64,000 nucleotides of DNA from Candidatus Omnitrophota bacterium. Lineage in GTDB: Bacteria; Omnitrophota; Gorgyraeia; Gygaellales; Profunditerraquicolaceae. Each line of letters starts with the position of its first letter. The first letter of the stretch is position 1. Below are positions 1-61,940 of the stretch, piece by piece. Made by a program: the position numbers and the translations under genes. The stretch covers positions 32,185 through 96,184 of the forward strand of contig JBEKSD010000003.1 of assembly GCA_049517335.1 (NCBI GenBank), written 5' to 3'. Below the pieces are notes generated by a model. The model saw nothing but the letters and a program-made list of their open reading frames with translations. It was not told the origin of the DNA and did not search any database.

Positions 1-616
1 TGCGCCTCATCCAGGAAAATTTCGCAATCATACTTTTCTTTTAAGCGCACAATTTTTTTTAAGGGCGCTTTATCCCCATCCATACTAAATATGCTCTCCG
101 TAATAATCAGCGCCTTTTTAAAATTCCCTCTTTCTTTTTTAATAAGCAATTCCAGGTGGTCCGTATCGTTGTGGCGGAAACGGAATGATTGCGCTCCGGA
201 TAAATTTATGCCGTCAATCAGGCTGGCATGGTTTAAGCGGTCTGAAAAAATGCAGTCATCTTTGCCGTATAACGCGCTGATTATCCCAATATTTGCCTGA
301 TATCCGGAATTAAATACCAACGCCGCTTCTTTATTTTTAAACTTAGCCAGCCTTTTCTCTAGTCTATGGTGTAATTCCGAATCTCCGCTCAAGAGGCGCG
401 AGGCTGAATTAGAAGTGCCAAATTTATCGAGTGCTTTGCAAGATGCGGCTATAAGTTTAGGATGCTGCGAGAGGCCAAGATAATCATTAGAAGAGAAATC
501 TATATAGGGCTTATTATTAATAATTATTTTACCTGCCTTGCGCAAGGAAACAGGCCGCAGCATGCGCAGGGTGCCTTCTTGCGCCTTTTTTTTAAGTACT
601 ACCTCTACATCTGCCA
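1..616 (-). CDS. bioF: 8-amino-7-oxononanoate synthase (BioF), N-terminal part; the 3' end runs off the window start
   Basis: Manual reverse-complement translation from the ATG at 616-614 gives MADVEVVLKKKAQEGTLRMLRPVSLRKAGKIIINNKPYIDFSSNDYLGLSQHPKLIAAS...NSGYQANIGIISAL...SMDGD..., which matches a BioF/class-II aminotransferase N-terminus. It is missing from the ORF track because no stop codon lies inside the window. It overlaps the bioB stop by 12 nt. Confidence 0.75.
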
Positions 617-1522
617 TAGCTTTTTTATTTCCTCAACCAGTTTCCAGTCTTCATCAACCATTCTTCCTTTTATAGTAAGGTACCCACCGATAAGCATCCC
701 GTTTGCTCCGGCCATAAAAGCTAAAGCCTGAAAATCCTTTAATAGAGACTCGCGCCCTGCGGCAATCTTAATGGTCTTACCTTCCAAAATTATCCTAAAA
801 ATCGCAATAGTCCTAATGGCTTCTTGTGCAGAAAGTAATGCCTGCCTTTCCATTTGCGTTCCTTTTATCGGTACCAGTATATTTATAGGCACGGAATCCA
901 CATTTAACTCTTTTAATGTCAAAACCATATCTATCCTGTCCTGCATATCTTCCCCCATCCCGATTATCCCTCCGGAACATACCTGCAAGCCGCATCTTTT
1001 AGCTGCTTTAATGGTATTAAGCCTGTCCTGAAAGGTGTGCGTGGTAACGATTTTCGGGAAGAAACGCGCTGAGGTTTCAATATTATGGTGGTATCGGATA
1101 ATTCCTGCATTTCTTAATAAAGAGAATCGTTCTTCATCCATGCTTCCCAATGAAGCGCAAATTCGTATTTTGATATTGGTAGAAATTTCTTTAATCGCAT
1201 CAAGAACCACCCTAAAATCTTTTTCCGATAACTTATCGCCGCTGGTCACGATACCAAAACTCTTTGCGCCAATTTTCTTGGCACGCATTGCCGCTTTGAT
1301 AATCTCCTCTTTTTTCTTTAGAGGATATGTGTCCAGGCCTGTCGCGTGCTTGCTGGACTGAGCGCAAAATTTGCAATCCTCAGCGCAAAATCCGCTTTTT
1401 GCGTTCATAATAGTACAGAGGTCCATAGACTTGCCGGCAAACTTCTCCCTTACCCGGTTTGCCTCTACCACTAAATCCATAATCGGCATTTTAAGTAGTT
1501 TTTCTATTCTCTCTCCCTCCAT
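605..1522 (-). CDS. bioB: biotin synthase (radical SAM). The ORF track extends to 1585, but the likely start is the ATG at 1522 (MEGERIEK...), preceded by GAGAGG
   Basis: The CAEDCKFC motif is a CxxxCxxC radical-SAM signature. The BioB-like region reads LPIMDLV..ANRVR...GAKSFGIVTSG. It lies between birA and bioF. Confidence 0.85.
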   Translation of the reverse strand: MEGERIEKLLKMPIMDLVVEANRVREKFAGKSMDLCTIMNAKSGFCAEDCKFCAQSSKHATGLDTYPLKKKEEIIKAAMRAKKIGAKSFGIVTSGDKLSEKDFRVVLDAIKEISTNIKIRICASLGSMDEERFSLLRNAGIIRYHHNIETSARFFPKIVTTHTFQDRLNTIKAAKRCGLQVCSGGIIGMGEDMQDRIDMVLTLKELNVDSVPINILVPIKGTQMERQALLSAQEAIRTIAIFRIILEGKTIKIAAGRESLLKDFQALAFMAGANGMLIGGYLTIKGRMVDEDWKLVEEIKKLWQM

Positions 1523-1616
1523 CAAATAATTCCTCTCATACATAATTCCGGCGCTTATTATAATAAGCGCCGGAATAATTGTCAACCTAATTAAATTTAT
1601 TAGTTTACGGAACTGT

Positions 1617-2573
1617 TTATCTGCAATGCATTACATCCCCGGCCACAACTTTAACATTCAAACCGGCATCATTACGCAGGATAAGCCCGCCGTCAATATC
1701 AATATCAAGAGCTTCCCCTTCATAATGTTTTTTGTGCGTATAGACTTTAACCCTGCGGCCTAAAGTTGTACTGTGTTCTCTCCATTTTCCGATAATAGAG
1801 GCAGGGCCCCTATGCTGGAATAGCAAATAATCCGCTTCCAGCTGCCGTAATAACTCCCGCAGTAACTCAATACGGTTTATTCCTTCTTTTTTGTGTTCCT
1901 TTAAAGAAGTTGTTCCCGCAATCAAAGTTTTTTTATCGTTATTCACATTCAAGCCTATCCCGATACTTATGAAATTCACCCTGTCTGTTTCGGCGCTTAA
2001 CTCGGTAAGTATGCCACCCAATTTCTTATTATGGATTAATATATCGTTCGGCCACTTTATTTGCGCATCCAGCGTACATATTTTTTTAACCGCCTCGCAA
2101 ACACTTACTGCCGAAAGCAATGTCAGGATAGATGCTTCTGACGGTGGTATTTTTGGCCGTAAAATCAAAGACATATAAATTCCTTTATATTTGGGGGAAA
2201 ACCAAATCCTGCCTAGCCTGCCCTTGCCTTTTGTCTGCGTTTCCGCTAAAATAAGGGTTCCTTCCTGCGCACCTGTAATGCCGAGCTTGAGCGCTTCATT
2301 CATAGTAGAAGCTACGGAATCAAAATAATAGATTTTCCTTCCCACAAATTTTGTTCCCAAATTACGGCTAACTTCAAATTCAAAAAGGCGATCCGGGGTT
2401 TCTTTGAGCCGGTAGCCCAAATGGGGCACAGCCACGATGTCATACCCGGCATCCCTCAATTCCTGAATATGTTTCCAGAGTGCCTGCCGGGATACCCCTA
2501 AACGCACACTGATAGCGTCTCCTGAAACATAATCATCTTTATTGCTTAAATATTCTAAGATTTTTTCCTGCAT
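1617..2573 (-). CDS. birA: bifunctional biotin-protein ligase / bio operon repressor BirA, with an N-terminal HTH
   Basis: The N-terminal wHTH reads VSGDAISVRLGVSRQALWKHIQELRDAGY. The BPL catalytic core reads GKGRLGRIWFSP. The gene sits in a bio gene context. Confidence 0.85.
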   Translation of the reverse strand: MQEKILEYLSNKDDYVSGDAISVRLGVSRQALWKHIQELRDAGYDIVAVPHLGYRLKETPDRLFEFEVSRNLGTKFVGRKIYYFDSVASTMNEALKLGITGAQEGTLILAETQTKGKGRLGRIWFSPKYKGIYMSLILRPKIPPSEASILTLLSAVSVCEAVKKICTLDAQIKWPNDILIHNKKLGGILTELSAETDRVNFISIGIGLNVNNDKKTLIAGTTSLKEHKKEGINRIELLRELLRQLEADYLLFQHRGPASIIGKWREHSTTLGRRVKVYTHKKHYEGEALDIDIDGGLILRNDAGLNVKVVAGDVMHCR

Positions 2574-2575
2574 GA

Positions 2576-3739
2576 TTATTTCTTTTCGTAAAGAGGGGAC
2601 ATGGCGCGCAATTTCTCAACCACCTGCGACAGTTGCTTAAGAAAACGACTAATCTCTTCTTCCGTTGTCCACCTACCTATAGTTATACGCAGGGAACCAT
2701 GGGCGATTTCATGCGGTAGGCCCAAAGCCAGAAGGACATGCGAAGGCTCAAGCGACGTAGATGTGCAGGCGGAACCGGTAGAGCAGGCAATACCCAACAA
2801 ATCCAGATTAAGCAGCATAGACTCGCCTTCAATGTATTTTATGGAGAAATTCACGTTATTGGGCAGCCTCTTTACGGGGTGGCCGTTAAGAAGGACTTCG
2901 GGGATTTTTTTGCTGATTTCAGTTATCATCCTATCGCGCAGCCCGCTCTGGAATTTTGCCTCATTTGCCATATTTTTACTACATAATTCCACGGCTTTTC
3001 CTAAGCCCACAATGCCGGGAGTATTCTGCGTAGAAGCGCGCCTTCCTTTTTCCTGATCGCCGCCGTCTAAGAACCTTGTAATACGCGTCCCCTTCCTGAG
3101 GTATAAAGCACCTACCCCTTTGGGGCCGTAAAATTTATGCGCAGAAAGCGACAATAAATCCACGTTCATTTCGTTAACATCAACTGGAATGTGGCCGACG
3201 GTCTGAACCGCATCAGTATGAAAATAAATCCCTCTTTCTTTTGCGATCCTGCCGATCTCGGTAATAGGCTGAATTGTACCGATTTCGTTGTTCGCATGCA
3301 TTACTGAAATAAGGACCGTCTTATCGGTTATGGCTTTCTTGATATCCTCCGAGGAAACCAAACCGGTTTTATCCACCCTGACATAAGTAACATTAAAACC
3401 GTGTTTCTCAAGGTATTTACAAGGCTCAAGTATTGCATGATGCTCAATGGCGGAAGTTATAATGTGATTTCCCTTTTCCGCCATGGCGGAAGCTATACCT
3501 TTTACGGCAAAATTACCGGATTCAGTCCCTCCGGACGTAAAAATAATTTCATCAAGCTTTGCCCCGATAAAAGAAGCGAGTTCCTCGCGGGCATCCTCTA
3601 CTCCCTTTTTCGCTTCCTGACCGAAAGAATGTATACTTGAAGCATTGCCGTATTTTTCAAAGAAATACGGCTCCATTGCTTTAACTACTTCAGGGTCGGT
3701 CGGCGCTGTAGCGGCGTAATCCAGATATATTCTTTTCAT
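2576..3739 (-). CDS. nifS: cysteine desulfurase (NifS/IscS family)
   Basis: Class V aminotransferase fold. The sequence LDYAATAP...SGGTESGN...SAHKFYGPKG...GSACTS carries the active-site Cys motif. Confidence 0.85.
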   Translation of the reverse strand: MKRIYLDYAATAPTDPEVVKAMEPYFFEKYGNASSIHSFGQEAKKGVEDAREELASFIGAKLDEIIFTSGGTESGNFAVKGIASAMAEKGNHIITSAIEHHAILEPCKYLEKHGFNVTYVRVDKTGLVSSEDIKKAITDKTVLISVMHANNEIGTIQPITEIGRIAKERGIYFHTDAVQTVGHIPVDVNEMNVDLLSLSAHKFYGPKGVGALYLRKGTRITRFLDGGDQEKGRRASTQNTPGIVGLGKAVELCSKNMANEAKFQSGLRDRMITEISKKIPEVLLNGHPVKRLPNNVNFSIKYIEGESMLLNLDLLGIACSTGSACTSTSLEPSHVLLALGLPHEIAHGSLRITIGRWTTEEEISRFLKQLSQVVEKLRAMSPLYEKK

Positions 3740-4539
3740 TTTATTGCCTCGTTCATGCTTCCGGTACGGTAACCTTCCAAATCAACTGTGATGTAATTAT
3801 AACCTAACTTTTTCAATTTGTCGACTACGAGGTTGCGTTTAGAGATTAAATTGCGTATTTGTTTATTCTCCACCTCTATCCGGCAGGAACGGCCGTAATC
3901 CCTGAGCCTTACCTGCTTAAAGCCGAGCTTCCTTAAAAAAAGCTCTCCTTTATTTATCCGCTTTAGCGCTATTGATGAAATCCTATTCCCATAAGGGATG
4001 CGCGAAGCAAGGCAAGCAAGGCTGGGCTTATCCCAAGTAGGGAGTTTTAACTTCCTGCTTAAACAACGGATATCATCCTTGGTAAAACCCGCTTCTTCAA
4101 GCGGCGAGCTTATCTTTAATTCTTTTCCGGCAATGCTGCCCGGACGGAAATCGAATTTATCGGAAACATTGCCTGCCTCTAAAACAACCTTAAATTTTTC
4201 TGCCCTCGCCATGTCTTTAAGGCGCGAAAAAAGTTCTTTTTTGCAGAAATAGCAGCGGTTAACCGGATTAGCAATAAACTTTTTGTTCCTACCTTCATGG
4301 GTGCGGATTATTTTATGACGCACGCCTATAAGCTTTGCTATCCTTCTGGCATAGATGATTTCTTCTTTAGGGTAAGTCGGGGAAACTGCCGTAACTGCAA
4401 GCAGATTTTCTCCAGGCAGGGTTTCCGCCGCTATTTTAAGCAGTAAACTGCTGTCAACCCCTCCGGAGAAAGCAATCACGCAGGAATTATATTTTAAGAT
4501 AAGTTTTTTAAGCTTATCCAGTTTTTTATAAAGCAACAA
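3736..4539 (-). CDS. PP-loop ATP pyrophosphatase of the LarE/TIGR00268 family (sulfur transferase) with a CxxC...C motif
   Basis: The PP-loop is SGGVDSS. The motif NRCYFCKKELF plus a later Cys matches Fe-S-dependent LarE-type thiolation enzymes. The gene is embedded in the thiamine/sulfur operon. Confidence 0.65.
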   Translation of the reverse strand: MLLYKKLDKLKKLILKYNSCVIAFSGGVDSSLLLKIAAETLPGENLLAVTAVSPTYPKEEIIYARRIAKLIGVRHKIIRTHEGRNKKFIANPVNRCYFCKKELFSRLKDMARAEKFKVVLEAGNVSDKFDFRPGSIAGKELKISSPLEEAGFTKDDIRCLSRKLKLPTWDKPSLACLASRIPYGNRISSIALKRINKGELFLRKLGFKQVRLRDYGRSCRIEVENKQIRNLISKRNLVVDKLKKLGYNYITVDLEGYRTGSMNEAIK

Positions 4540-4798
4540 CCTCTTTAACCTCGGGGACTTCCTGCTTTAAAATCCTCTCAACGCCGTTCTTCAGGGTTAT
4601 TTGAGACATCGGGCAGCAGCCGCAGGTACCAGTAAGCTTAAGCTTCACTACCCCGTCAGCTGTTACTTCTACCAATTCAACATTCCCGCCGTCAGTCATA
4701 AGCATCGGCCTGATTTTATCTAAAGCCTTCTCTACTTTTTCTCTCATAAATTGCTCCTTTTTGCTATTATTATAGCATTCAGCTGCTTTATTTGCCAC
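4526..4798 (-). CDS. NifU-like (Nfu-type) Fe-S cluster scaffold domain protein
   Basis: TGTCGCCPMS is a CxxC motif typical of the NifU C-terminal domain. The protein is 90 aa. Confidence 0.7.
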   Translation of the reverse strand: MANKAAECYNNSKKEQFMREKVEKALDKIRPMLMTDGGNVELVEVTADGVVKLKLTGTCGCCPMSQITLKNGVERILKQEVPEVKEVVAL

Positions 4799-5420
4799 TT
4801 TTCTTTAAAACATATTCCAACACAATATCCGCTTCTTTTGCCGCAGCTATGTTAACCCGCGGGGATACTGCGGGCTTATCCTTAATATCGCTCTTTAAAT
4901 CCCCGACAACCACAAAGTTTTCCTTTATCCTGTGCGTTCTGATTTCATCGCTTGAGCCTACGCCGCCTAATCCGGAAGCAGAAACAATAAATCTGCCTTC
5001 GGGTAAAAGCCGATTAACTAACATGCTCTTACCTTCGGAGGTATCAAGACATTCAACAATAATATGGCAGTTTTTAAATAATTCTTTTATGTTATTTTCG
5101 GTAATTTTTACTGCTTCTGTTTTAATATCCAATTCCGGATTAACCCTGCAAAGATTTATTTTGAGCGCATCCACTTTTTTCTGGCCGACCTGGTCCAGAA
5201 AATAAAACTGCCGGTCTAAATTTGAAGGTGTAATGATATCAAAATCTACGATCTTAAATTTTTTAAAACCGGATCTTACCAGATTAAGGGCGCAATTAGA
5301 ACCCAACCCTCCTGCTCCGGCTATGCCTATTCTGGTCTCTTCAACCCTGGCGAGGTTCTCTTTCCCGAACTTTTTAATTAAATCTTCCCTGAATGTTTCC
5401 ATTTTTAGAGCTGCAACCAA
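4788..5420 (-). CDS. thiF: ThiF/MoeB-family E1-like adenylyltransferase (ThiS adenylyltransferase)
   Basis: The Rossmann fold reads [21 protein letters not shown]...DFD. It is adjacent to thiH, thiG and thiS. Confidence 0.8.
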
Positions 5421-6496
5421 TCTTTCAGCACCGGCTGGTATCCTTTTCTTTCAATTGCGTCTTTAATTTCATCAACACTTCTTTCGTCCGAAATCCGGAA
5501 CTGGGCTTGATGAGCGCCCTGATTCAAAGTATGGCCTCCTACGGCTGTAGTTGAACCGGCAGACATCTTGGTAATTCCCAAGGACAGAATATTTTCCCTG
5601 AACTCCGGATTCTCACGCGTAGATATTGTTATGCCGACACGCGGCAGGAATAATCTTAAAGCCATTATCATCTGGACGATATTCTTGTCTGTTACGATAT
5701 AAGGTGCTGTAAAATTTCCTACCTGCGGCCTCAAGCGCGGGAGCGAAATACCAATTTCTACATCTGGAAACTTATCCTGCAGGTATTTTGCGTGTAGCCC
5801 CATAAAGAAAGCCTCCTTTCTCCATGGCGCTAATCCCAGTAAAATACCTATATTGACATTACGCATGCCTGATGCGCATCCTCTTTCAGGCGCATCAAGC
5901 CTAAAGTTATAATTCTTTTTTGCTCCGGCAAGATGCACCGAATCATAAACTGTTTCGTCGTAAACTTCCTGGTATATTGTTAACCCGTCAACTCCGCAGG
6001 AAACCAACTCTGCATACTCAGCTTCTGTAAGCGGAAAAATTTCAATGGATATTGAACTAAAATATTTTTTCAGTACATTCACGCAATCCTTAATGTAGCT
6101 TATGGGCGTCATTTTACGGGATTCTCCGGTCAGAATAAGAATGTGTTTTAATCCAGTAGAAGCGATGAACTTGGCTTCTTTTTCAACTTCATCTAGGGAA
6201 AGCTTTTTTCTTTTAAAGCTGTTATCCGCGGTAAAACCACAGTAAGCGCATTTATTTTCGCAGTAATCCGATAAATACATTGGTGTATAAAGTTGGATGG
6301 TCTTGCCGAAATTACTTATAGTCAACTCATGGGCCCTTGCAGCTATCTCCTCCAAATATTTTTCCGCGGAAGCAGAAAGAAGAGCGGAAAATTGAGAAAT
6401 ACTCACATTATCGGTTAATATGGCAGATTTTATATCTTCCGACTTTTCGTCAAAAGTCTTACCTTTATATTGTGAATAAACTTCATAATAATTCAT
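5405..6496 (-). CDS. thiH: 2-iminoacetate synthase ThiH (radical SAM tyrosine lyase)
   Basis: The CENKCAYC radical-SAM motif is present. The ~363 aa length and the position next to thiG fit ThiH. Confidence 0.8.
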
Positions 6497-7281
6497 TTTC
6501 TTAAGAACCCCGTTAATGGGCTAGATGCCTGAGCCACATTTGATTGCGCGGGTATACCGCTTAAAAAAGCCTGTCTTCCGGATGAAACCGCCTTGTTAAA
6601 CGCTTCTGCAAAATTCACCGGATCCGGGGAGATAGCAATAGCAGTATTCACTAATACAGCGGCACTTCCTAACTCCATACATCTACAGGCATCTGACGGC
6701 CTGCCTAATCCCGCATCAACGATAATTGGAGCATTGACTTCTTCAATCATTATTTTAACAAGTTCTTCCGTCCTTAAACCCCTGTTACTGCCGATTGGTG
6801 AACCTAACGGCATAACAGCGCTGGCTCCGTATTCAACAAGCTTTTTTGCCACAGCTATATCCGGACTCATATAAGGCAAAACGATAAAACCTTCTTTAAC
6901 TAAAACCTCAGTTGCCTTTAAAACCTCAAGATTATCCGGCAGAAGGTATTTATTGTCCTTTATGATTTCAATTTTAATCCAGTTTCCCGCGCCTACTGCT
7001 TTGGCCAAGCGGGCAATCCTTATTGCCTCCTCTGCGTTCCGGGCACCGGAAGTATTGGTCATCACCAAGCATTCTTTAGGGATATAATACAAAATGTTAT
7101 CCGACTTAGAACCGACATCCACCCTTCTTAAAGCTACCGTTACCACATCCGGACTGACTTTTTCTAAAACTTCCTTCATAACACGGTTGCTTGAAAATTT
7201 TCCCGTGCCGATAAATAACCTGTTCTTGATTTTCTTTTTTGCGATTATCAATGCGTCTTCCAATTTATCCTCCTCCGACAA
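6493..7281 (-). CDS. thiG: thiazole synthase ThiG
   Basis: A ThiG-like TIM barrel of 262 aa (IGTGKF..., ...SPIGSNRG...), located between thiH and thiS. Confidence 0.85.
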
Positions 7282-7465
7282 AACTTAAGACCTCTAAAGT
7301 ATCATCCTGGGCTATTATAATTTTGCGCCATTCTTCTTTAGGCACAATGCGTAGATTATGTTCTACAATAATTCTTTCCAGAAGAAACCCCTTTTCTGCA
7401 AGTAAATCGTAGAGGGTTATTCCGGAGTTGAATGATATCTCTTCTCCGTTCAGTTTAACAGACAT
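7265..7465 (-). CDS. thiS: sulfur carrier protein ThiS
   Basis: 66 aa ending in GG (…LSFVGGG). It is the first gene after the TPP riboswitch and overlaps thiG. Confidence 0.85.
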
Positions 7466-7480
7466 CTCTCCCTCCTAAGA

Positions 7481-7516
7481 AATAAAAACCCTTAATGCCA
7501 AAAGATTAAGGGTTTT
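7481..7516 (-). terminator. intrinsic terminator hairpin forming the expression platform of the TPP riboswitch
   Basis: A 12-bp stem (aaaacccttaat / attaagggtttt) is followed on the minus-strand RNA by UAUUUCUUAGGAGG. The U-tract overlaps the thiS SD sequence. Confidence 0.7.
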
Positions 7517-7616
7517 ATATTTTTCCCTACGCTGGCATTATCCAGATCAGGTTAAACAAGGGTAATCTGCTTACTTTAAGCAGAACTCTCAGGCTGTCTG
7601 ACAACCTCCCCTTACT
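7517..7616 (-). ncRNA. TPP (THI-box) riboswitch aptamer
   Basis: The minus-strand RNA contains GGGGAGG...CUGAGAG...ACCCUUGUUUAACCUGAUCUGGAUAAUGCCAGCGUAGGGAA. These are the conserved CUGAGA and ACCUGAUCUGGAUAAUGCCAGCGUAGGGAA blocks of the THI element. It sits directly upstream of thiS. Confidence 0.9.
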
Positions 7617-7619
7617 TTT

Positions 7620-8210
7620 TTATTTTGAAATCACAAAAACCGCATTAAGAGCAAGAAGATTCGGCCAAAACCTAACCCTGCGCAATTTTCCAAGATTATA
7701 CACCTGGAGAATCTTTATATCTTTACTTTTACAATAATATTTAAAATCGCTGATACTCAAAAACCGGACGTTAGGAGTATCGTACCAGCGGTATGGTAAG
7801 GATTTCGTAATCGGGGCCTTGCCTTTAAAAAACATCATAAAGCGCGCCTTTATATGGGCAAAGTTAGAAAAGCCTATAATGACTTTCTTGCCTACGCGAA
7901 GCGTCTCCTCTATAACAAAGTCAATTTTTTTGACCTCCTGCATACTCTGATTCAAAATCACGTAATCAAAGTTTTTATCCGGATATTCAGTCAAGCCACT
8001 GTCAATATCGCTTTGAAAAACGCTCAAGCCTTTTTCAACGCAATCATGGATAGCCTCATCGTCAAGCTCAATACCCTGCACAATCGCATTTTTCTTTTCT
8101 GAGAGCAAAAGAATAAGGTCTCCGTTGCCGCAGCCTAAATCCAGAACGCGCGACCCGGGTTCAATAATATTAGTAATAACCTTATAATCTAACCTTATTT
8201 TTTCAGACAA
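7620..8210 (-). CDS. metW: methionine biosynthesis protein MetW (SAM-MTase-like)
   Basis: The methyltransferase fold reads VLDLGCGNGDLI. The gene lies immediately downstream of metX. Confidence 0.8.
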   Translation of the reverse strand: MSEKIRLDYKVITNIIEPGSRVLDLGCGNGDLILLLSEKKNAIVQGIELDDEAIHDCVEKGLSVFQSDIDSGLTEYPDKNFDYVILNQSMQEVKKIDFVIEETLRVGKKVIIGFSNFAHIKARFMMFFKGKAPITKSLPYRWYDTPNVRFLSISDFKYYCKSKDIKILQVYNLGKLRRVRFWPNLLALNAVFVISK

Positions 8211-8228
8211 TTTTCAACCTCTCTGTAC

Positions 8229-9356
8229 TTATCCGTGAAAAGTTTTCTTAAGAAAGTGCTTGATTAAATGCGTTTCCTCTTCAACCTCCAGAAGGAATGC
8301 ATCATGGCCATAGGTTGAGTTTATTTCACAGTACGTAGCGTCCTGACCGCGCAATTTCAGGGCTCGCGCTATCTCCTGCGACTGATAGGAAGGATACAGC
8401 CAATCGGACTTAAAAGAGATAACCAGAAAACGCAGATCAATATCTTTATCTTTCGGTATAAGTTTACTACCGGAAAGGTCAAAATAATCCATGGCCTTAG
8501 TCAAATACAGGTAAGAGTTGGCGTCAAAGCGCTTAACAAAATTATCCCCTCTATACCTTAAATACCCTTCAACTTCAAAATCTGTTGCGAATTTAAAACT
8601 ATAATCCTGTGCTTTAAGCCGACGGGAGAATTTTTCTTCCATAGATTTATCGCTCATATAAGTAATATGGCCGATCATGCGCGCAACAGCTAACCCTCTT
8701 TCCGGCTTTGCTTTCCCGTAATAATTGCCTTCATTCCACGCCGGGTCAGCCATTACTGCCTGCCTGCCTACTTCATCAAAGGCAATCTGCTGAGGCGAAT
8801 GTTTTAAAGTTGTAGCAATGGGTATGGCGCTTTGCACATGCTTAGGATATGTTGCTACCCATTGCAAAACCTGCATTCCGCCCATCGAGCCTCCGATAAT
8901 ACAAAGAAGTTTCTTGATTCCCAAATGATCAATCAAATACTTTTGGGCCCTGACCATATCAGCAATGGTAATTACCGGAAAATCAAGTCCGTAATAATTG
9001 CTTGTTTTCGGGTTAATTGATGCCGGGCCGGTGCTCCCCTTACATCCGCCAATGACATTTGAACAAATCACGAAATACTTATTTGTATCCAACGCTTTAT
9101 TCGGCCCAACCAACACATCCCACCAACCGGGATCTTTATCTCCTTCGTGGAATCCTGCGGCATGCGCATCCCCGGATAAGGCATGTTCAACAAGAATAGC
9201 ATTACTTTTGTCTGTATTAAGCTCGCCGTAAGTTTCATAGCTAAGCGTAATGGGGCCTAAAGACTGCCCGGAATCGAGCTTCAATCCATCTGAGCCTTCT
9301 GCGAAACTAAAATATTCCTGTTTTAGAGTACCTACCGATTCTGTTTTATAAGTCAT
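8229..9356 (-). CDS. metX: homoserine O-acetyltransferase
   Basis: A MetX alpha/beta-hydrolase of 375 aa carrying GGSMGGMQ. It sits with metW and metY. Confidence 0.85.
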
Positions 9357-10288
9357 CCTAAGTATTCCTGAAATAACCAGGTTGTCAGATAGCGTTCGCC
9401 TGTATCAGGCAGAACTACCACTATGGTTTTACCTTGTGATTCTTTGCGCTTGGCAACCTCTAATGCCGCCCATACGGCAGCGCCACTTGAAATCCCCACA
9501 AAAATGCCTTCCTGCCGCGCTAATTTTCTTGCAACTTGCCCCGCATCATCATTAGATACCTTAATGATTTCATCAATTATTTCGCGGTTAAGTATCTGCG
9601 GAATAAATCCCGCGCCTATTCCCTGAATTTTATGCGGTCCCGGCTTGCCTCCGGATAAAACCGGAGAATCGACCGGTTCAATTCCTATGACCTTTACGGA
9701 AGGTTTATTTTTTTTAAGTACTTCCCCTACTCCGGTTATTGTACCACCGGTGCCGATTCCGGCAATAAAAATGTCTACTTTGCCGTCAGTATCATCCCAT
9801 ATTTCCTGCGCGGTTGTTTTACGGTGGATCTCGGGATTTGCCGGATTATTAAACTGCTGCGGCACAAAACTATTTGGAGTAACCTTTGCCAATTCTTCTG
9901 CTTTCTCAACTGCCCCGCGCATGCCTTTAGCCCCTTCAGTCAAAATAAGCTCTGCGCCGAGAATCTTCAAAAGCTGCCTGCGCTCTAGGCTCATGGTATC
10001 CGGCATGGTCAAAATCAGCTTATACCCCTTGGCTGCGGCTACGAATGCCAAAGCAATCCCGGTATTACCACTGGTCGGTTCAATGATTACTGAATTTTTT
10101 TTCAAAAGCCCTTTTCTTTCGGCATCTTCGATCATAGCGACCCCTATGCGGTCTTTAACACTTGAAAGCGGATTAAACGATTCTATTTTTGCCAAAACAA
10201 ACGCATCTAAACCCTCAGTGATACGATTTAGTTTCACCAGAGGAGTATTTCCAACGGTTTTGGTTATATCATCAAATATTCTACTCAT
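9353..10288 (-). CDS. cysK: cysteine synthase (O-acetylserine sulfhydrylase)
   Basis: PLP fold with NPLSSVKDR and GNTGIALA, which is the CysK/CysM signature. Confidence 0.85.
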
Positions 10289-10304
10289 ATTCCCTCCTTA
10301 AAAA

Positions 10305-11627
<1,323 letters not shown>

Positions 11628-11673
11628 TTAACTACAGGCAAGGGGAATAAACCCCTTGCCTGTAGTTTTATCT

Positions 11674-12513
11674 TTAGAAAGCATATTGCGCGCTTAATAC
11701 AAACCCGCTGCCTAATCCTTGCCTCGTAGAATTAGTGTAGCTACCGGTATCAGTATAGGCTGCAATAAGAGTAAGATTTTTGTTTGCAAGCCATGCTAGA
11801 TGCGTATCCCAGTAGTTATTATTTTTATAAGTCGCAAACTGCTCTCCCTGCTTAAACTCCCAACCAACCACAAAACCGTGAGGCAGTACCACAGCAATGT
11901 TGGCAAACCCGGTGGTCTTTCTCTTGTTATGGAAACCTAACACGCCTGTAACAAATTCCTGCGAGGAAAGCACGCCACCAGAAACAATCACAGGTAGCGG
12001 AAGCTGTGTTATCGTTTTTGTTGCCACAGCATACCAATCCTGTCCGCTCGTACGAAGGGGAAGGCCCAGTTTATGTACGCCTTCGCTGGTAACCTTATAT
12101 ATAGTCCCAACGGAAACAGCGGGAACCCATTTTGAATTAAATGAATCCTCATCTAATAACAGATACTTAGCTCCGACGTTGTTTTTATGAAAAGTTGGAT
12201 GGTCTACCCAGCTGACAGCTTGAAAGCCGTAAGAAACTTCCAGCTTTTTAAATAAGGTATCTGCCACGCCAACTGATGTCCAGTCAATGGACGGATCCCC
12301 CAAATTCACATACCAAGCGCTGAATCTGGGTTTACCTATTACATCCTGATTACCGATCTTAAAATCACTGTCCCCCTCGGCAAGATACGCCAACGGGTTA
12401 AATGCCACACCGCCCACGCCTTCCAGATTATTGAACGGGGGAGCGGCGAATACGTTTTTTGAAAATACGACGGTCAGCAAAAGAGCGGTGAAAAACAAAA
12501 TAAGCTTTTTCAT
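11674..12513 (-). CDS. putative outer-membrane beta-barrel protein
   Basis: A signal peptide (MKKLILFFTALLLTVVFSKNVFA) and a C-terminal ...AQYAF ending in aromatic F, typical of OMPs. Confidence 0.45.
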   Translation of the reverse strand: MKKLILFFTALLLTVVFSKNVFAAPPFNNLEGVGGVAFNPLAYLAEGDSDFKIGNQDVIGKPRFSAWYVNLGDPSIDWTSVGVADTLFKKLEVSYGFQAVSWVDHPTFHKNNVGAKYLLLDEDSFNSKWVPAVSVGTIYKVTSEGVHKLGLPLRTSGQDWYAVATKTITQLPLPVIVSGGVLSSQEFVTGVLGFHNKRKTTGFANIAVVLPHGFVVGWEFKQGEQFATYKNNNYWDTHLAWLANKNLTLIAAYTDTGSYTNSTRQGLGSGFVLSAQYAF

Positions 12514-17688: not shown

Positions 17689-17972
17689 TTTTGGATATTA
17701 TAAACCCGCGTATTTACTTTGTCACCTTTTATTTCGGAAGGAAGGTCTCTTTTTAATTGAAGCCATTTTCCTTCGCCTATGCACTGGCGCGCGCTCGCGC
17801 ACCAATCCACACAGGCGGACAATCTTTCTCTTGCGGTCCATATACCGCAAGAGGGGCATTTAAGCTTAATTTCATCAGAAAATATCTCAATCAAATACCC
17901 GCAGTTATAACAACTTAACGTTTCTATCTTAATATTTCTTTTATCCTGCCCCGGGCATTTATTTATCAGCAT
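17673..17972 (-). CDS. Cys-rich small metal-binding protein (zinc-ribbon plus CxxxCx5C) of unknown function
   Basis: MLINKCPGQ...SCYNCGY...KCPSCGIW...SACVDWCASARQCIGEG carries 8 Cys in 99 aa. The ATG overlaps the Rrf2 stop (TAATG). The ORF track extends to an upstream start at 18065 inside the Rrf2 gene. Confidence 0.5.
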   Translation of the reverse strand: MLINKCPGQDKRNIKIETLSCYNCGYLIEIFSDEIKLKCPSCGIWTARERLSACVDWCASARQCIGEGKWLQLKRDLPSEIKGDKVNTRVYNIQKWISP

Positions 17973-29730: not shown

Positions 29731-29759
29731 TTGAAATGGCCTTGAATTAGGTATATAAT
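29731..29759 (+). promoter_or_regulatory. sigma70-like promoter TTGAAA-N17-TATAAT, with the -10 ending 10 nt before the CDF ATG (likely leaderless)
   Basis: Read directly from the sequence. There is no SD. Confidence 0.45.
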
Positions 29760-29768
29760 TACGAAAAG

Positions 29769-30644
29769 ATGGATAGCTTAAGCCAACATTACGGCCGTAT
29801 ACGTAAAGCTCTCATAATAATCCTGGGGTTAAACTGGCTCGTAGCTCTAGTCAAAATTTTTTACGGATTGACTACCAGGTGCGAAAGTATGACTGCCGAT
29901 GGCTTTCATTCTCTTGCCGACGGCGCGTCTAACATTATCGGCTTAGTCGGGATACATTTCGCCTGCCAGCCTAAAGACTCAGACCACCCTTACGGGCATA
30001 AAAAATACGAGACATTCTTTGCGTTAGGTATTGCCGGTATGCTTTTTCTGGTTGCATTTAATCAGACTAAACAAGGAATAACCCACCTAACTCAACCCCA
30101 TAACCCCGTGGTTAACCTCAATAGCTTCATAGTTATACTTATCACCTTGGCGGTTAATTTTTGGGTAATGGATTATGAACGCAAACTAGGCATTAAGTTT
30201 AAAAGCGATATCCTCATCTCGGACGCAGCGCATACAAAGGCTGATATTTTCACTTCCCTCTCAGTAATCTGCGTCCTTATCGTAATAAAACTGGGTTATC
30301 CTATACTTGACCCCATTGTCACTATAATCATTTCCGTTTTTATCGCGTATGCCGGATATGAAATTATCAAAGAGAGCTCCAATGTCCTTTGTGATACGGC
30401 TGCGATATTAGACGTGAAAAGAATAAGCGATATCGTACTGGCTGTAAAGGGGGTGAAGACCTGCCATAAGATCCGCTCCCGCGGCCGGCCCGACGATGTG
30501 CATATTGATTTACATGTGCAGGTTAATCCCGATATGCACGTGGATAATGCTCATAAGATTAGTTTTGCTATTGAAGAGGCGATAAAGAAAGCTTTGCCTG
30601 AAGTGACGGATGTTATTGTCCATATAGAGCCTAAATATAACTAG
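29769..30644 (+). CDS. cation diffusion facilitator (CDF) family metal efflux transporter
   Basis: The motif HSLADGASN, six TMs and a C-terminal cytoplasmic domain. Confidence 0.8.
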   Translation: MDSLSQHYGRIRKALIIILGLNWLVALVKIFYGLTTRCESMTADGFHSLADGASNIIGLVGIHFACQPKDSDHPYGHKKYETFFALGIAGMLFLVAFNQTKQGITHLTQPHNPVVNLNSFIVILITLAVNFWVMDYERKLGIKFKSDILISDAAHTKADIFTSLSVICVLIVIKLGYPILDPIVTIIISVFIAYAGYEIIKESSNVLCDTAAILDVKRISDIVLAVKGVKTCHKIRSRGRPDDVHIDLHVQVNPDMHVDNAHKISFAIEEAIKKALPEVTDVIVHIEPKYN

Positions 30645-61433: not shown

Positions 61434-61940
61434 CTATTCCCAACCTTTTATCTTATAGTCAAAGGTTATTTTCTTAATCTGCGGGTTGCTTTCATATTTA
61501 TTAAGGCACCGCTTGTCCATCTTGAAGCCTTTTTGCCTATTTATTCTACACTGTCTTTCAAATTCTACCCAAGGCAATAGATACATCCGTATATTATTAG
61601 CATCATCAATTGAATCAACTACGACAGCAAGATAAGGCTCACAATCAAAGATTTTGCAGGCAGATAATACTTCTCTTTTGCTTGGGATGGTTACATTGCT
61701 ATAAGCTTGCCCTCTTTCACGGGTGCGGGCTTTAACACTTATGCCTAGCCTTTCTTTTGTCTTCTTGTTATACGCTATTAAGTCAATTCCAATATAATCA
61801 ACATTAACAACCTCATAGCCATACTTAGATAGCCAATACATCAGCATAGCTTCGCCAAAGTCGCCAGCAATCTTACTATGCCTTGAGCTCTTTCTTATTT
61901 CCATGTAAAGGATTGTATCACCTACTTTAGTGGGTGTCAA
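61434..61940 (-). CDS. small PD-(D/E)xK-fold nuclease-like protein (Hjc/Mrr-cat-like core)
   Basis: The pattern G..GE..L...L.K.G..V is followed by GIDLIAY (Asp) and ISVKAR (x-V-K), which matches the restriction-endonuclease-like core. The assignment rests on the motif pattern only. Confidence 0.4.
   Translation of the reverse strand: MTPTKVGDTILYMEIRKSSRHSKIAGDFGEAMLMYWLSKYGYEVVNVDYIGIDLIAYNKKTKERLGISVKARTRERGQAYSNVTIPSKREVLSACKIFDCEPYLAVVVDSIDDANNIRMYLLPWVEFERQCRINRQKGFKMDKRCLNKYESNPQIKKITFDYKIKGWE

Follow-up and report, generated by a model that had tools for sequence, protein, structure and literature searches.

A TPP riboswitch ahead of thiSGHF and probable separate transcription units for the adjoining Fe-S and biotin genes in a Candidatus Omnitrophota locus

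A stretch of 64,000 nucleotides (nt) of DNA from an uncultivated Candidatus Omnitrophota bacterium, referred to here as the window, carries on its minus strand a tight array of genes (thiS, thiG, thiH, thiF, nifU, larE, nifS, birA, bioB and bioF) preceded by a thiamine pyrophosphate (TPP) riboswitch. The first-pass annotation had proposed that the riboswitch heads one super-operon of about 7.5 kb, with thiamine status gating sulfur mobilisation and biotin synthesis as well, and the question raised by the locus is how far along the array the control by TPP extends. We consider it probable that a canonical TPP riboswitch with an intrinsic terminator controls thiSGHF and that nifU-birA and bioBF(HCDA) are separate transcription units. 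Of these three units thiSGHF alone is clearly TPP-controlled, and TPP control of the biotin genes is unlikely. The super-operon proposal survives in that the switch does head thiSGHF, and fails for control of the iron-sulfur (Fe-S) and biotin genes, since predicted internal promoters lie before nifU and bioB (conserved) and before nifS (an 11/12 match to the consensus).

Rfam was scanned at gathering threshold over the whole window, with an additional permissive scan of positions 1..12000, and gene families were assigned by NCBIfam and Pfam. The comparison set comprised 113 loci, two of which (L001 and L002) duplicate the window; a tblastn map covered 80 larE loci, and the related thiSGHF leaders came from 8 metagenome loci, making nine scored leaders with the window included. 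The genomes nearest to the window were all Candidatus Omnitrophota, and the exact ThiH protein was found on Joint Genome Institute (JGI) contig Ga0427963_0000706 (sample 3300038451). The elements of the leader are the following.

7507..7622, minus strand: TPP riboswitch aptamer (THI element); RF00059, 62.1 bits, gathering threshold 54.3, E 8.9e-10.
7477..7516, minus strand: intrinsic-terminator-like hairpin and U-run, from the terminator scan and folding.
7500..7619, minus strand: predicted antiterminator, from minimum free energy (MFE) folds of nascent transcripts ending before the terminator 3' arm.

The whole-window scan returned three matches, two tRNAs and RF00059, with no second riboswitch in the 64 kb, and besides RF00059 the permissive scan of 1..12000 yielded sub-threshold hairpin artefacts only. 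The alignment of 7622..7507 to RF00059 is full length (model positions 1-105), and in it both ligand-contact motifs are intact, CUGAGA in the pyrimidine-sensor arm and ACCUGAUCUGGAUAAUGCCAGCG in the pyrophosphate-sensor arm; helices P2, P3, P4 and P5 are present in the MFE fold. The aptamer lies 41 nt upstream of thiS, ahead of thiG, thiH and thiF, and the Rfam match begins with the stop codon of the upstream gene metW (TAA, 7622..7620). RF00059 was likewise found upstream of thiS in all eight related thiSGHF loci, at 60-82 bits. The element is, on its sequence and predicted structure, a TPP riboswitch for which TPP binding is predicted, and the RF00059 search that the first-pass annotation had suggested bears out both its identification and its position, the strand being minus.

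A close relative, L084, has the order metX-metW-TPP riboswitch-thiSGHF, followed by a methyltransferase, cystathionine beta-synthase (CBS), gamma-lyase-like (CGL) and GAPDH genes and without nifU; its identity to the window is 94% for metX, 90% for metW and 79-91% across thiSGHF (ThiH 86%). The homologous aptamer of L084 scores 69 bits. The aptamer is conserved between the two, two stem substitutions keeping the pairing and the substitutions as a whole falling in loops or being pairing-neutral, and the flanking spacers carry indels. A long-range P1 between AAAUAAAAA (7626..7618) and UUUUUAUUU in the U-run was tried and rejected: it is perfect in the window and absent in L084, and was taken for an A/U-rich coincidence.

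Scans of metW and of the metX 3' end for a promoter serving the riboswitch gave weak matches only. The best one in metW, AAGATA-17-TATAAT at 7723..7695, has a TATAAT made of Tyr-Asn codons, and it is kept in L084, as is the entire surrounding coding region. Given the lack of a good promoter and the start of the aptamer at the metW stop, the switch may also act on metXW-derived transcripts, as a conditional terminator for those arriving from upstream.

Downstream of the aptamer, the hairpin AAAACCCUUAAU-CUUUUGGC-AUUAAGGGUUUU at 7516..7485 has a 12-bp stem and an 8-nt loop and folds at -14.1 kcal/mol (z -2.3), with the U-run UUUUUAUUUCUU at 7488..7477 downstream of the stem. This U-run does not overlap the Shine-Dalgarno (SD) sequence of thiS, as had been stated, and instead abuts it, ending 1 nt before AGGAGG (7476..7471). 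The terminator-type platform itself, already proposed in the first-pass annotation, was confirmed: in the window and 8/8 related leaders a hairpin and U-run separate the aptamer from thiS, the stems of these leaders being unrelated in sequence. The terminator stem of L084 is identical to that of the window, and an insertion there sets hairpin and U-run about 50 nt from the thiS start; at that distance the hairpin cannot work by masking the SD, which favours termination. In the nascent-leader folds, the 5' segment AAAAGUAAGGG (~7619..7609, the P1/P2 5' strand) pairs with CCCUUA..UCUUU (~7512..7500, the terminator 5' arm), and a pairing of the terminator 5' arm with an aptamer strand was predicted in 8/8 leaders, as antitermination would lead one to expect. 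An alternative antiterminator joins UAAUGCCA (P5 3' strand) to UGGCAUUA (terminator loop and 3' arm) by 8 perfect pairs and is found in L084 too. Both segments are identical there, so that covariation is lacking, and the forced structure lies 6.7 kcal/mol above the MFE; this modelled pairing would be a secondary possibility only.

In the mechanism that we propose, the TPP-bound aptamer would keep its P2/P4 strands, leaving AAAACCCUUAAU available for pairing with AUUAAGGGUUUU, and RNA polymerase would terminate in the U-run just upstream of the thiS ribosome-binding site. When TPP is absent, the aptamer 5' strand AAAAGUAAGGG would pair with the terminator 5' arm as an antiterminator, and transcription would continue into thiSGHF. 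THI-elements with terminators are known before thiSGHFE in Desulfovibrio (Rodionov et al. 2004, PMC545781), and the window resembles that system in its RF00059 aptamer, in the regulated genes thiS, thiG, thiH and thiF, and in the hairpin and U-run platform. Unlike the Desulfovibrio case, the window has a single aptamer and no tandem pair, the aptamer begins, without a visible promoter, at the stop of a co-directional metW and has a poor P1, and the unit has neither thiE nor a closing terminator after thiF. The riboswitch itself is ordinary, an Omnitrophota example of the well-known terminator-type TPP class before thiSGHF.

The internal signals of the array, on which the separation into units depends, are listed next; promoters were scored out of 12 against the consensus TTGACA-17-TATAAT.

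4769..4798, minus strand: candidate nifU promoter, GTGGCA-18-TGcTATAAT; 10/12 in the promoter scan, with the TG of an extended -10.
3796..3824, minus strand: possible internal promoter, TCGACA-17-TATAAT; 11/12 match, inside the larE 3' end, 57 nt before nifS.
1579..1610, minus strand: BirA operator (bioO), ccGTAAACt-N14-GGTTGACAA; consensus match, binding and repression predicted.
1557..1585, minus strand: bioB promoter, TTGACA (1585..1580)-17-TATAAT (1562..1557); the sole 12/12 match in the window.
1545..1576, minus strand: perfect 16+16-nt palindrome, ATTCCGGCGCTTATTA/TAATAAGCGCCGGAAT, spanning the -10 box.

Consensus matches with at most one mismatch numbered 7 in the window against 0.64 expected, and no shuffle reached 7; four of them are intergenic before genes, and the remaining three fall within the 3' ends of genes upstream. 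Two of the seven fall in the array, at 1585..1557 (12/12) and 3824..3796 (11/12). The strong internal promoters that the first-pass annotation had named as evidence against its own reading are predicted in the array: the 12/12 match with its BirA operator before bioB, the conserved extended -10 before nifU and the 11/12 match before nifS. Where relatives conserve the last of these, they also conserve the protein motifs VDK and GYNY, so that it is a possible promoter that cannot be separated from coding constraint on the VDK...GYNY codons.

Before nifU, the promoter comprises GTGGCA at 4798..4793 and the -10 box at 4774..4769, followed by the SD AGGAG (4758..4754) and the nifU ATG. The last codons of thiF lie within its -35 box, with the stop codon directly after (GTGGCAAATAA). 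The motif GTGGCAA...GAATGnTATAAT (aTGnTATAAT) is common to the window, L083 and L016, and in L016 it stands in a true 98-nt intergenic region after thiM (hydroxyethylthiazole kinase), with no thiF there. In several other genomes the gene immediately before nifU is of the PALP family (cysK-like by eye), or another extended -10 lies upstream of nifU. Around 20 Omnitrophota genomes have nifU-(HcyBio-NIL/Fer4)-larE-nifS-birA without thiSGHF upstream; RF00059 was found in none of the 11 such loci scanned with Rfam, and across the 113 loci no THI-box pattern was seen near the nifU-birA modules of other Omnitrophota. Judged by their gene orders, these loci show thiSGHF, nifU-larE-nifS-birA and the genes from bioB onwards to be separable modules. 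The conserved extended -10 promoter, which covers the thiF stop codon, would drive transcription of nifU-larE-nifS-birA.

Before bioB, the predicted BirA operator comes directly after the birA stop, and its right half-site contains the bioB -35 box. The published BirA signal is TTGTAAACC-N14/15-GGTTTACAA, and predicted bioB sites include GGTTgACAA variants in Geobacter and TTGTAAACC-N15-aGTTgACAA in Desulfovibrio (PMC545781); the window operator fits this consensus, the GGTTgACAA and aGTTgACAA variants in particular. The exact core GTAAAC-N16-GTTGAC was found in 16 of the 113 loci (14 beyond L001 and L002), each time just downstream of birA, and in 13 of 15 distinct loci examined a spacer of 17-18 nt separates the operator from a TATAAT or TACAAT box downstream. 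Since the right half of the operator contains the -35 box, the site lies over the promoter, like bioO of E. coli, which lies over the bio promoters (PMC5640590). We propose that bioBF(HCDA) is driven by the consensus promoter and that BirA would repress it via the operator over the -35 box. As in E. coli, Desulfovibrio and Geobacter, the window has an imperfect palindrome over the bioB -35 box and encodes a group II BirA with a helix-turn-helix (HTH) domain nearby. Unlike those known systems, its operator is immediately 3' of birA itself and a hairpin-forming inverted repeat runs across the -10 box, and most Omnitrophota relatives place a TonB-dependent receptor gene, not bioB, after the operator.

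That inverted repeat also speaks against the earlier statement that no other terminator is visible in the array, given that a strong palindromic hairpin (1576..1545) sits between birA and bioB. As RNA the palindrome forms a 14-bp hairpin with a tail, UAUGUAUG, that is weakly rich in U, and the 76-nt stretch 1600..1525 that holds it folds at -24.1 kcal/mol (z -4.2), a value equalled by 0/200 shuffles. Eleven further loci have a hairpin of different sequence at the same position, mostly with a U-run after it. The 5' arm lies in the promoter spacer and the 3' arm past the start site; transcripts started at the promoter carry the 3' arm only, and birA read-through transcripts carry both. The simplest reading is that the hairpin terminates the unit upstream and is embedded in the promoter of the unit that follows. 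A search of the literature on terminators embedded in promoters found nothing directly comparable.

Several points weigh against the three-unit reading or parts of it. All of its promoters, terminators and the operator are predictions. The aptamer has a poor P1, with 3/5 pairs non-canonical in the cmscan alignment and no convincing alternative P1 kept in L084, and its Rfam score is the second lowest among the nine scored leaders. The terminator stem has just 3 G-C pairs. The antiterminator partner is the P1/P2 5' strand in the window but the P4 3' strand in L084, and the full-length MFE has the terminator even without ligand, so that the switch must be kinetic. The weak U-tail of the hairpin before bioB means that it may terminate poorly. 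At the thiF-nifU junction no hairpin or terminator was seen (fold -9.8 kcal/mol, z -1.2), and with no terminator after thiF, read-through into nifU-larE-nifS-birA is likely. Among the mapped loci, this junction is found only in the window with its duplicate L002 and in L083 (ThiF 81%, NifU 93% identical to the window); being common to lineages only 81% identical in ThiF, it has been retained for some time. The ThiF proteins of L083 and L084 are 92% identical to residue 200 and then diverge, and their downstream genes differ, which places a breakpoint in the last thiF codons. TPP-dependent read-through from thiF that adds to nifU-birA expression is possible, and we regard a partial coupling, in which scarce thiamine would let riboswitch-released transcripts extend into nifU-larE-nifS-birA, as a tentative prospect, doubtful though worth keeping in view. 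If true, it would give a thiamine-responsive boost of Fe-S assembly and cysteine-derived sulfur atop a constitutive promoter, timed to the demands of ThiH (Fe-S) and ThiS (sulfur). By the gene orders compared, the arrangement would be present in the window and L083 and, in L084, lost or never gained; read-through, if shown, would make it a small case of regulatory coupling born of gene juxtaposition.

More far-reaching is a single transcript, headed by the riboswitch, that would run from thiS through bioF as far as bioA and by which thiamine would gate sulfur mobilisation, Fe-S assembly and biotin synthesis together. All the genes are on the same strand with overlaps or short gaps, the thiF-nifU junction lacks a hairpin and is kept in L083, and the place between metW and nifU is taken in L016 by a further thiazole gene, thiM. 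There is biochemical logic to it too, ThiH and BioB being radical S-adenosylmethionine (SAM) Fe-S enzymes and ThiS thiocarboxylate formation needing a cysteine desulfurase. We nevertheless judge it improbable in view of the perfect consensus promoter and BirA operator before bioB, conserved in 16 loci, the strong hairpin between birA and bioB, the conserved promoter before nifU, the existence of the nifU-birA module without thi genes in some 20 genomes and without a TPP riboswitch in the 11 loci scanned, and the ending of the unit after thiF in L084. The leader, for its part, could act on translation, with the TPP-bound hairpin and the U-run beside the SD hindering ribosome binding and no termination taking place. 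E. coli thiM is a translational TPP switch. Others are known before thiED and thiM in delta-proteobacteria (PMC545781), and the single nucleotide between U-run and SD in the window would suit such a mode. In the predicted folds, however, no aptamer-dependent segment pairs with the SD, the identical hairpin of L084 stands far from the thiS start, and the classic layout of stem and U-run recurs in every related leader, making a translational platform quite improbable. It is highly improbable, finally, that the aptamer is decaying and the hairpin a constitutive metXW terminator, with thiSGHF expressed from elsewhere or poorly regulated. The degenerate P1, a score only 8 bits above threshold and an aptamer that abuts the metW stop with no promoter found for it point that way; against them stand the intact ligand-contact motifs, the conservation between window and L084 with changes confined to loops or neutral for pairing, and the silencing that a constitutive terminator would impose on thiSGHF, which has no other promoter. 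A literature search on TPP control of nifS/iscS, on Omnitrophota thiamine regulation and on this locus found nothing relevant.

For the three-unit reading, the practical consequence is that tight same-strand arrays in compact genomes are not to be taken as single operons: the two largest gaps of this array conceal conserved promoters, one of them BirA-controlled. The gaps of -16 to +36 nt given in the first-pass annotation hold just for the longest possible open reading frames (ORFs); with realistic starts, the thiF-nifU gap is 40 nt and the birA-bioB gap 94 nt, the largest in the array, and both have promoters. The identities of the ten genes were all confirmed by NCBIfam and Pfam, and the array reads as follows.

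7620..8210, minus strand: metW, the upstream neighbour; TIGR02081, 224.2 bits.
7265..7465, minus strand: thiS, sulfur carrier, ATG at 7465, SD AGGAGG at 7476..7471; TIGR01683, 65.4 bits.
6493..7263, minus strand: thiG, thiazole synthase; PF05690, 332 bits.
5405..6496, minus strand: thiH, 2-iminoacetate synthase, radical SAM; TIGR02351, 500.7 bits.
4788..5402, minus strand: thiF, ThiS adenylyltransferase; NF006395, 264.8 bits.
4526..4747, minus strand: nifU, Nfu-type, 73 amino acids (aa), ATG at 4747; PF01106, 98.3 bits.
3736..4539, minus strand: larE-like PP-loop sulfur transferase; TIGR00268, 309 bits, cut-off 150.
2576..3739, minus strand: nifS, cysteine desulfurase; TIGR03402, 585.4 bits.
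1617..2573, minus strand: birA, group II biotin ligase with N-terminal HTH (repressor) domain; TIGR00121, 210.7 bits.
605..1522, minus strand: bioB, biotin synthase, ATG at 1522 (also the JGI call); TIGR00433, 391.5 bits.
1..617, minus strand: 5' part of bioF, with a 13-nt overlap with bioB; from translation, Pfam and the L001 gene table.

The likely start of thiG is the TTG at 7263, 2 nt past the thiS stop. Residues 4-64 of BirA match TIGR00122 at 56.9 bits, under its cut-off of 70, and PF08279 (HTH_11) is on record for the protein. On the source contig bioF is followed by bioH-like, bioC-like, bioD and bioA genes, and the array is preceded, in the same orientation, by metY, a PALP-enzyme gene, metX and metW.

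The larE translation has an SGGVDS P-loop and the cysteines C96-x-x-C99 and C175 (CxxC...C), and by TIGR00268 and these motifs the homolog is one that fits the [4Fe-4S]-dependent LarE type. The definition of the SGGxDS and CxxC...C motifs is taken from Chatterjee et al. (2022, PMC9283937), who describe the LarE of Thermotoga maritima, a [4Fe-4S]-dependent protein supplied by the cysteine desulfurase IscS. The window protein resembles that LarE in family (TIGR00268), P-loop and CxxC...C motif, and its gene adjoins those of an Fe-S scaffold protein and a cysteine desulfurase, as would suit a sulfur transferase that depends on a cluster and is fed by the desulfurase. Unlike T. maritima, where the desulfurase genes are distant from larE (PMC9283937), the window larE overlaps nifU and nifS.

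The comparison of loci yielded further observations on the same modules. A conserved Omnitrophota cluster consists of nifU, HcyBio (PF01837, sulfur-incorporating homocysteine synthesis), a NIL/4Fe-4S ferredoxin, larE of the CxxC-C type, nifS and birA; it occurs in L003, L005-L007, L012, L014-L016, L018, L021, L022 and L067 (for example L016, 5657-10430), and the window is without its HcyBio and NIL pair. In L016, thiM (4752-5558) follows metW at a distance of 12 nt, has no TPP riboswitch and precedes the nifU promoter. The riboswitch and thiSGHF fill this slot in the window, an exchange between thiazole salvage and de novo synthesis at a single locus. A palindromic insert of ~30-50 nt is found in or just after the larE 3' end, before nifS, in L004 (~930-1000), L067 (~10780-10850) and L022 (~7790-7825), with the sequence CCCCGTTAGAAA...TTTCTAACGGGG in L004 and L067 and another palindrome in L022; it may be a small mobile hairpin element.

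The composite element before bioB (BirA operator, TTGACA-17-TATAAT and inverted repeat over the -10 box; window 1610..1545, minus strand) recurs across Omnitrophota just 3' of birA, in L004-L007, L010, L012, L013, L015, L016, L018, L022, L023, L026 and L067. Its arms vary in sequence but stay complementary, which suggests a birA read-through terminator escaped by promoter-initiated transcripts. The first gene after the operator in L005, L006, L010, L012, L013, L015, L016, L018, L023 and L067 encodes a protein of ~600 aa (e.g. L010, 5347-7140), with a signal peptide and Plug and TonB-dependent-receptor domains according to Pfam in L010, the only one so searched; from these domains it is a candidate outer-membrane biotin receptor. 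Six of the receptor loci and L022 have an ATG 6-7 nt past the -10 box, so that the mRNA may be leaderless, and in the receptor loci the hairpin 3' arm and T-run fall within signal-peptide codons. Such a phylum-wide fusion of BirA operator and promoter with a read-through-only hairpin, often before a TonB-dependent receptor gene, may be of wider interest.

In L084, the region after thiF (8600-8780) has a TTGACA-16-TATACT match ahead of a leader of ~120 nt. Of the two hairpins in this leader, the second (CCCACTACC...GGTAGTGGG and T6) is terminator-like and precedes the methyltransferase, CBS and gamma-lyase genes. No Rfam family matched downstream of thiF in L084, so that the leader may represent a regulatory element of sulfur amino-acid genes that is not yet described. 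Elsewhere in the window, a perfect 16-bp hairpin, ACTACAGGCAAGGGG...CCCCTTGCCTGTAGT, lies at 11667..11630 between a DUF3034 gene and metY, 30 nt from the metY start and with no T-run on the coding (minus) strand; it gave a sub-threshold Rfam match to tpke11 (27.5 bits against 43). Three of the near-consensus promoters, at 17725..17697 (minus), 29731..29759 (plus) and 61940..61912 (minus), end a few nt before the nearest ORF start (in one of them the -10 box ends at 29759 and the ORF starts at 29769), and mRNAs that are leaderless or have a very short leader may be frequent in the source organism.

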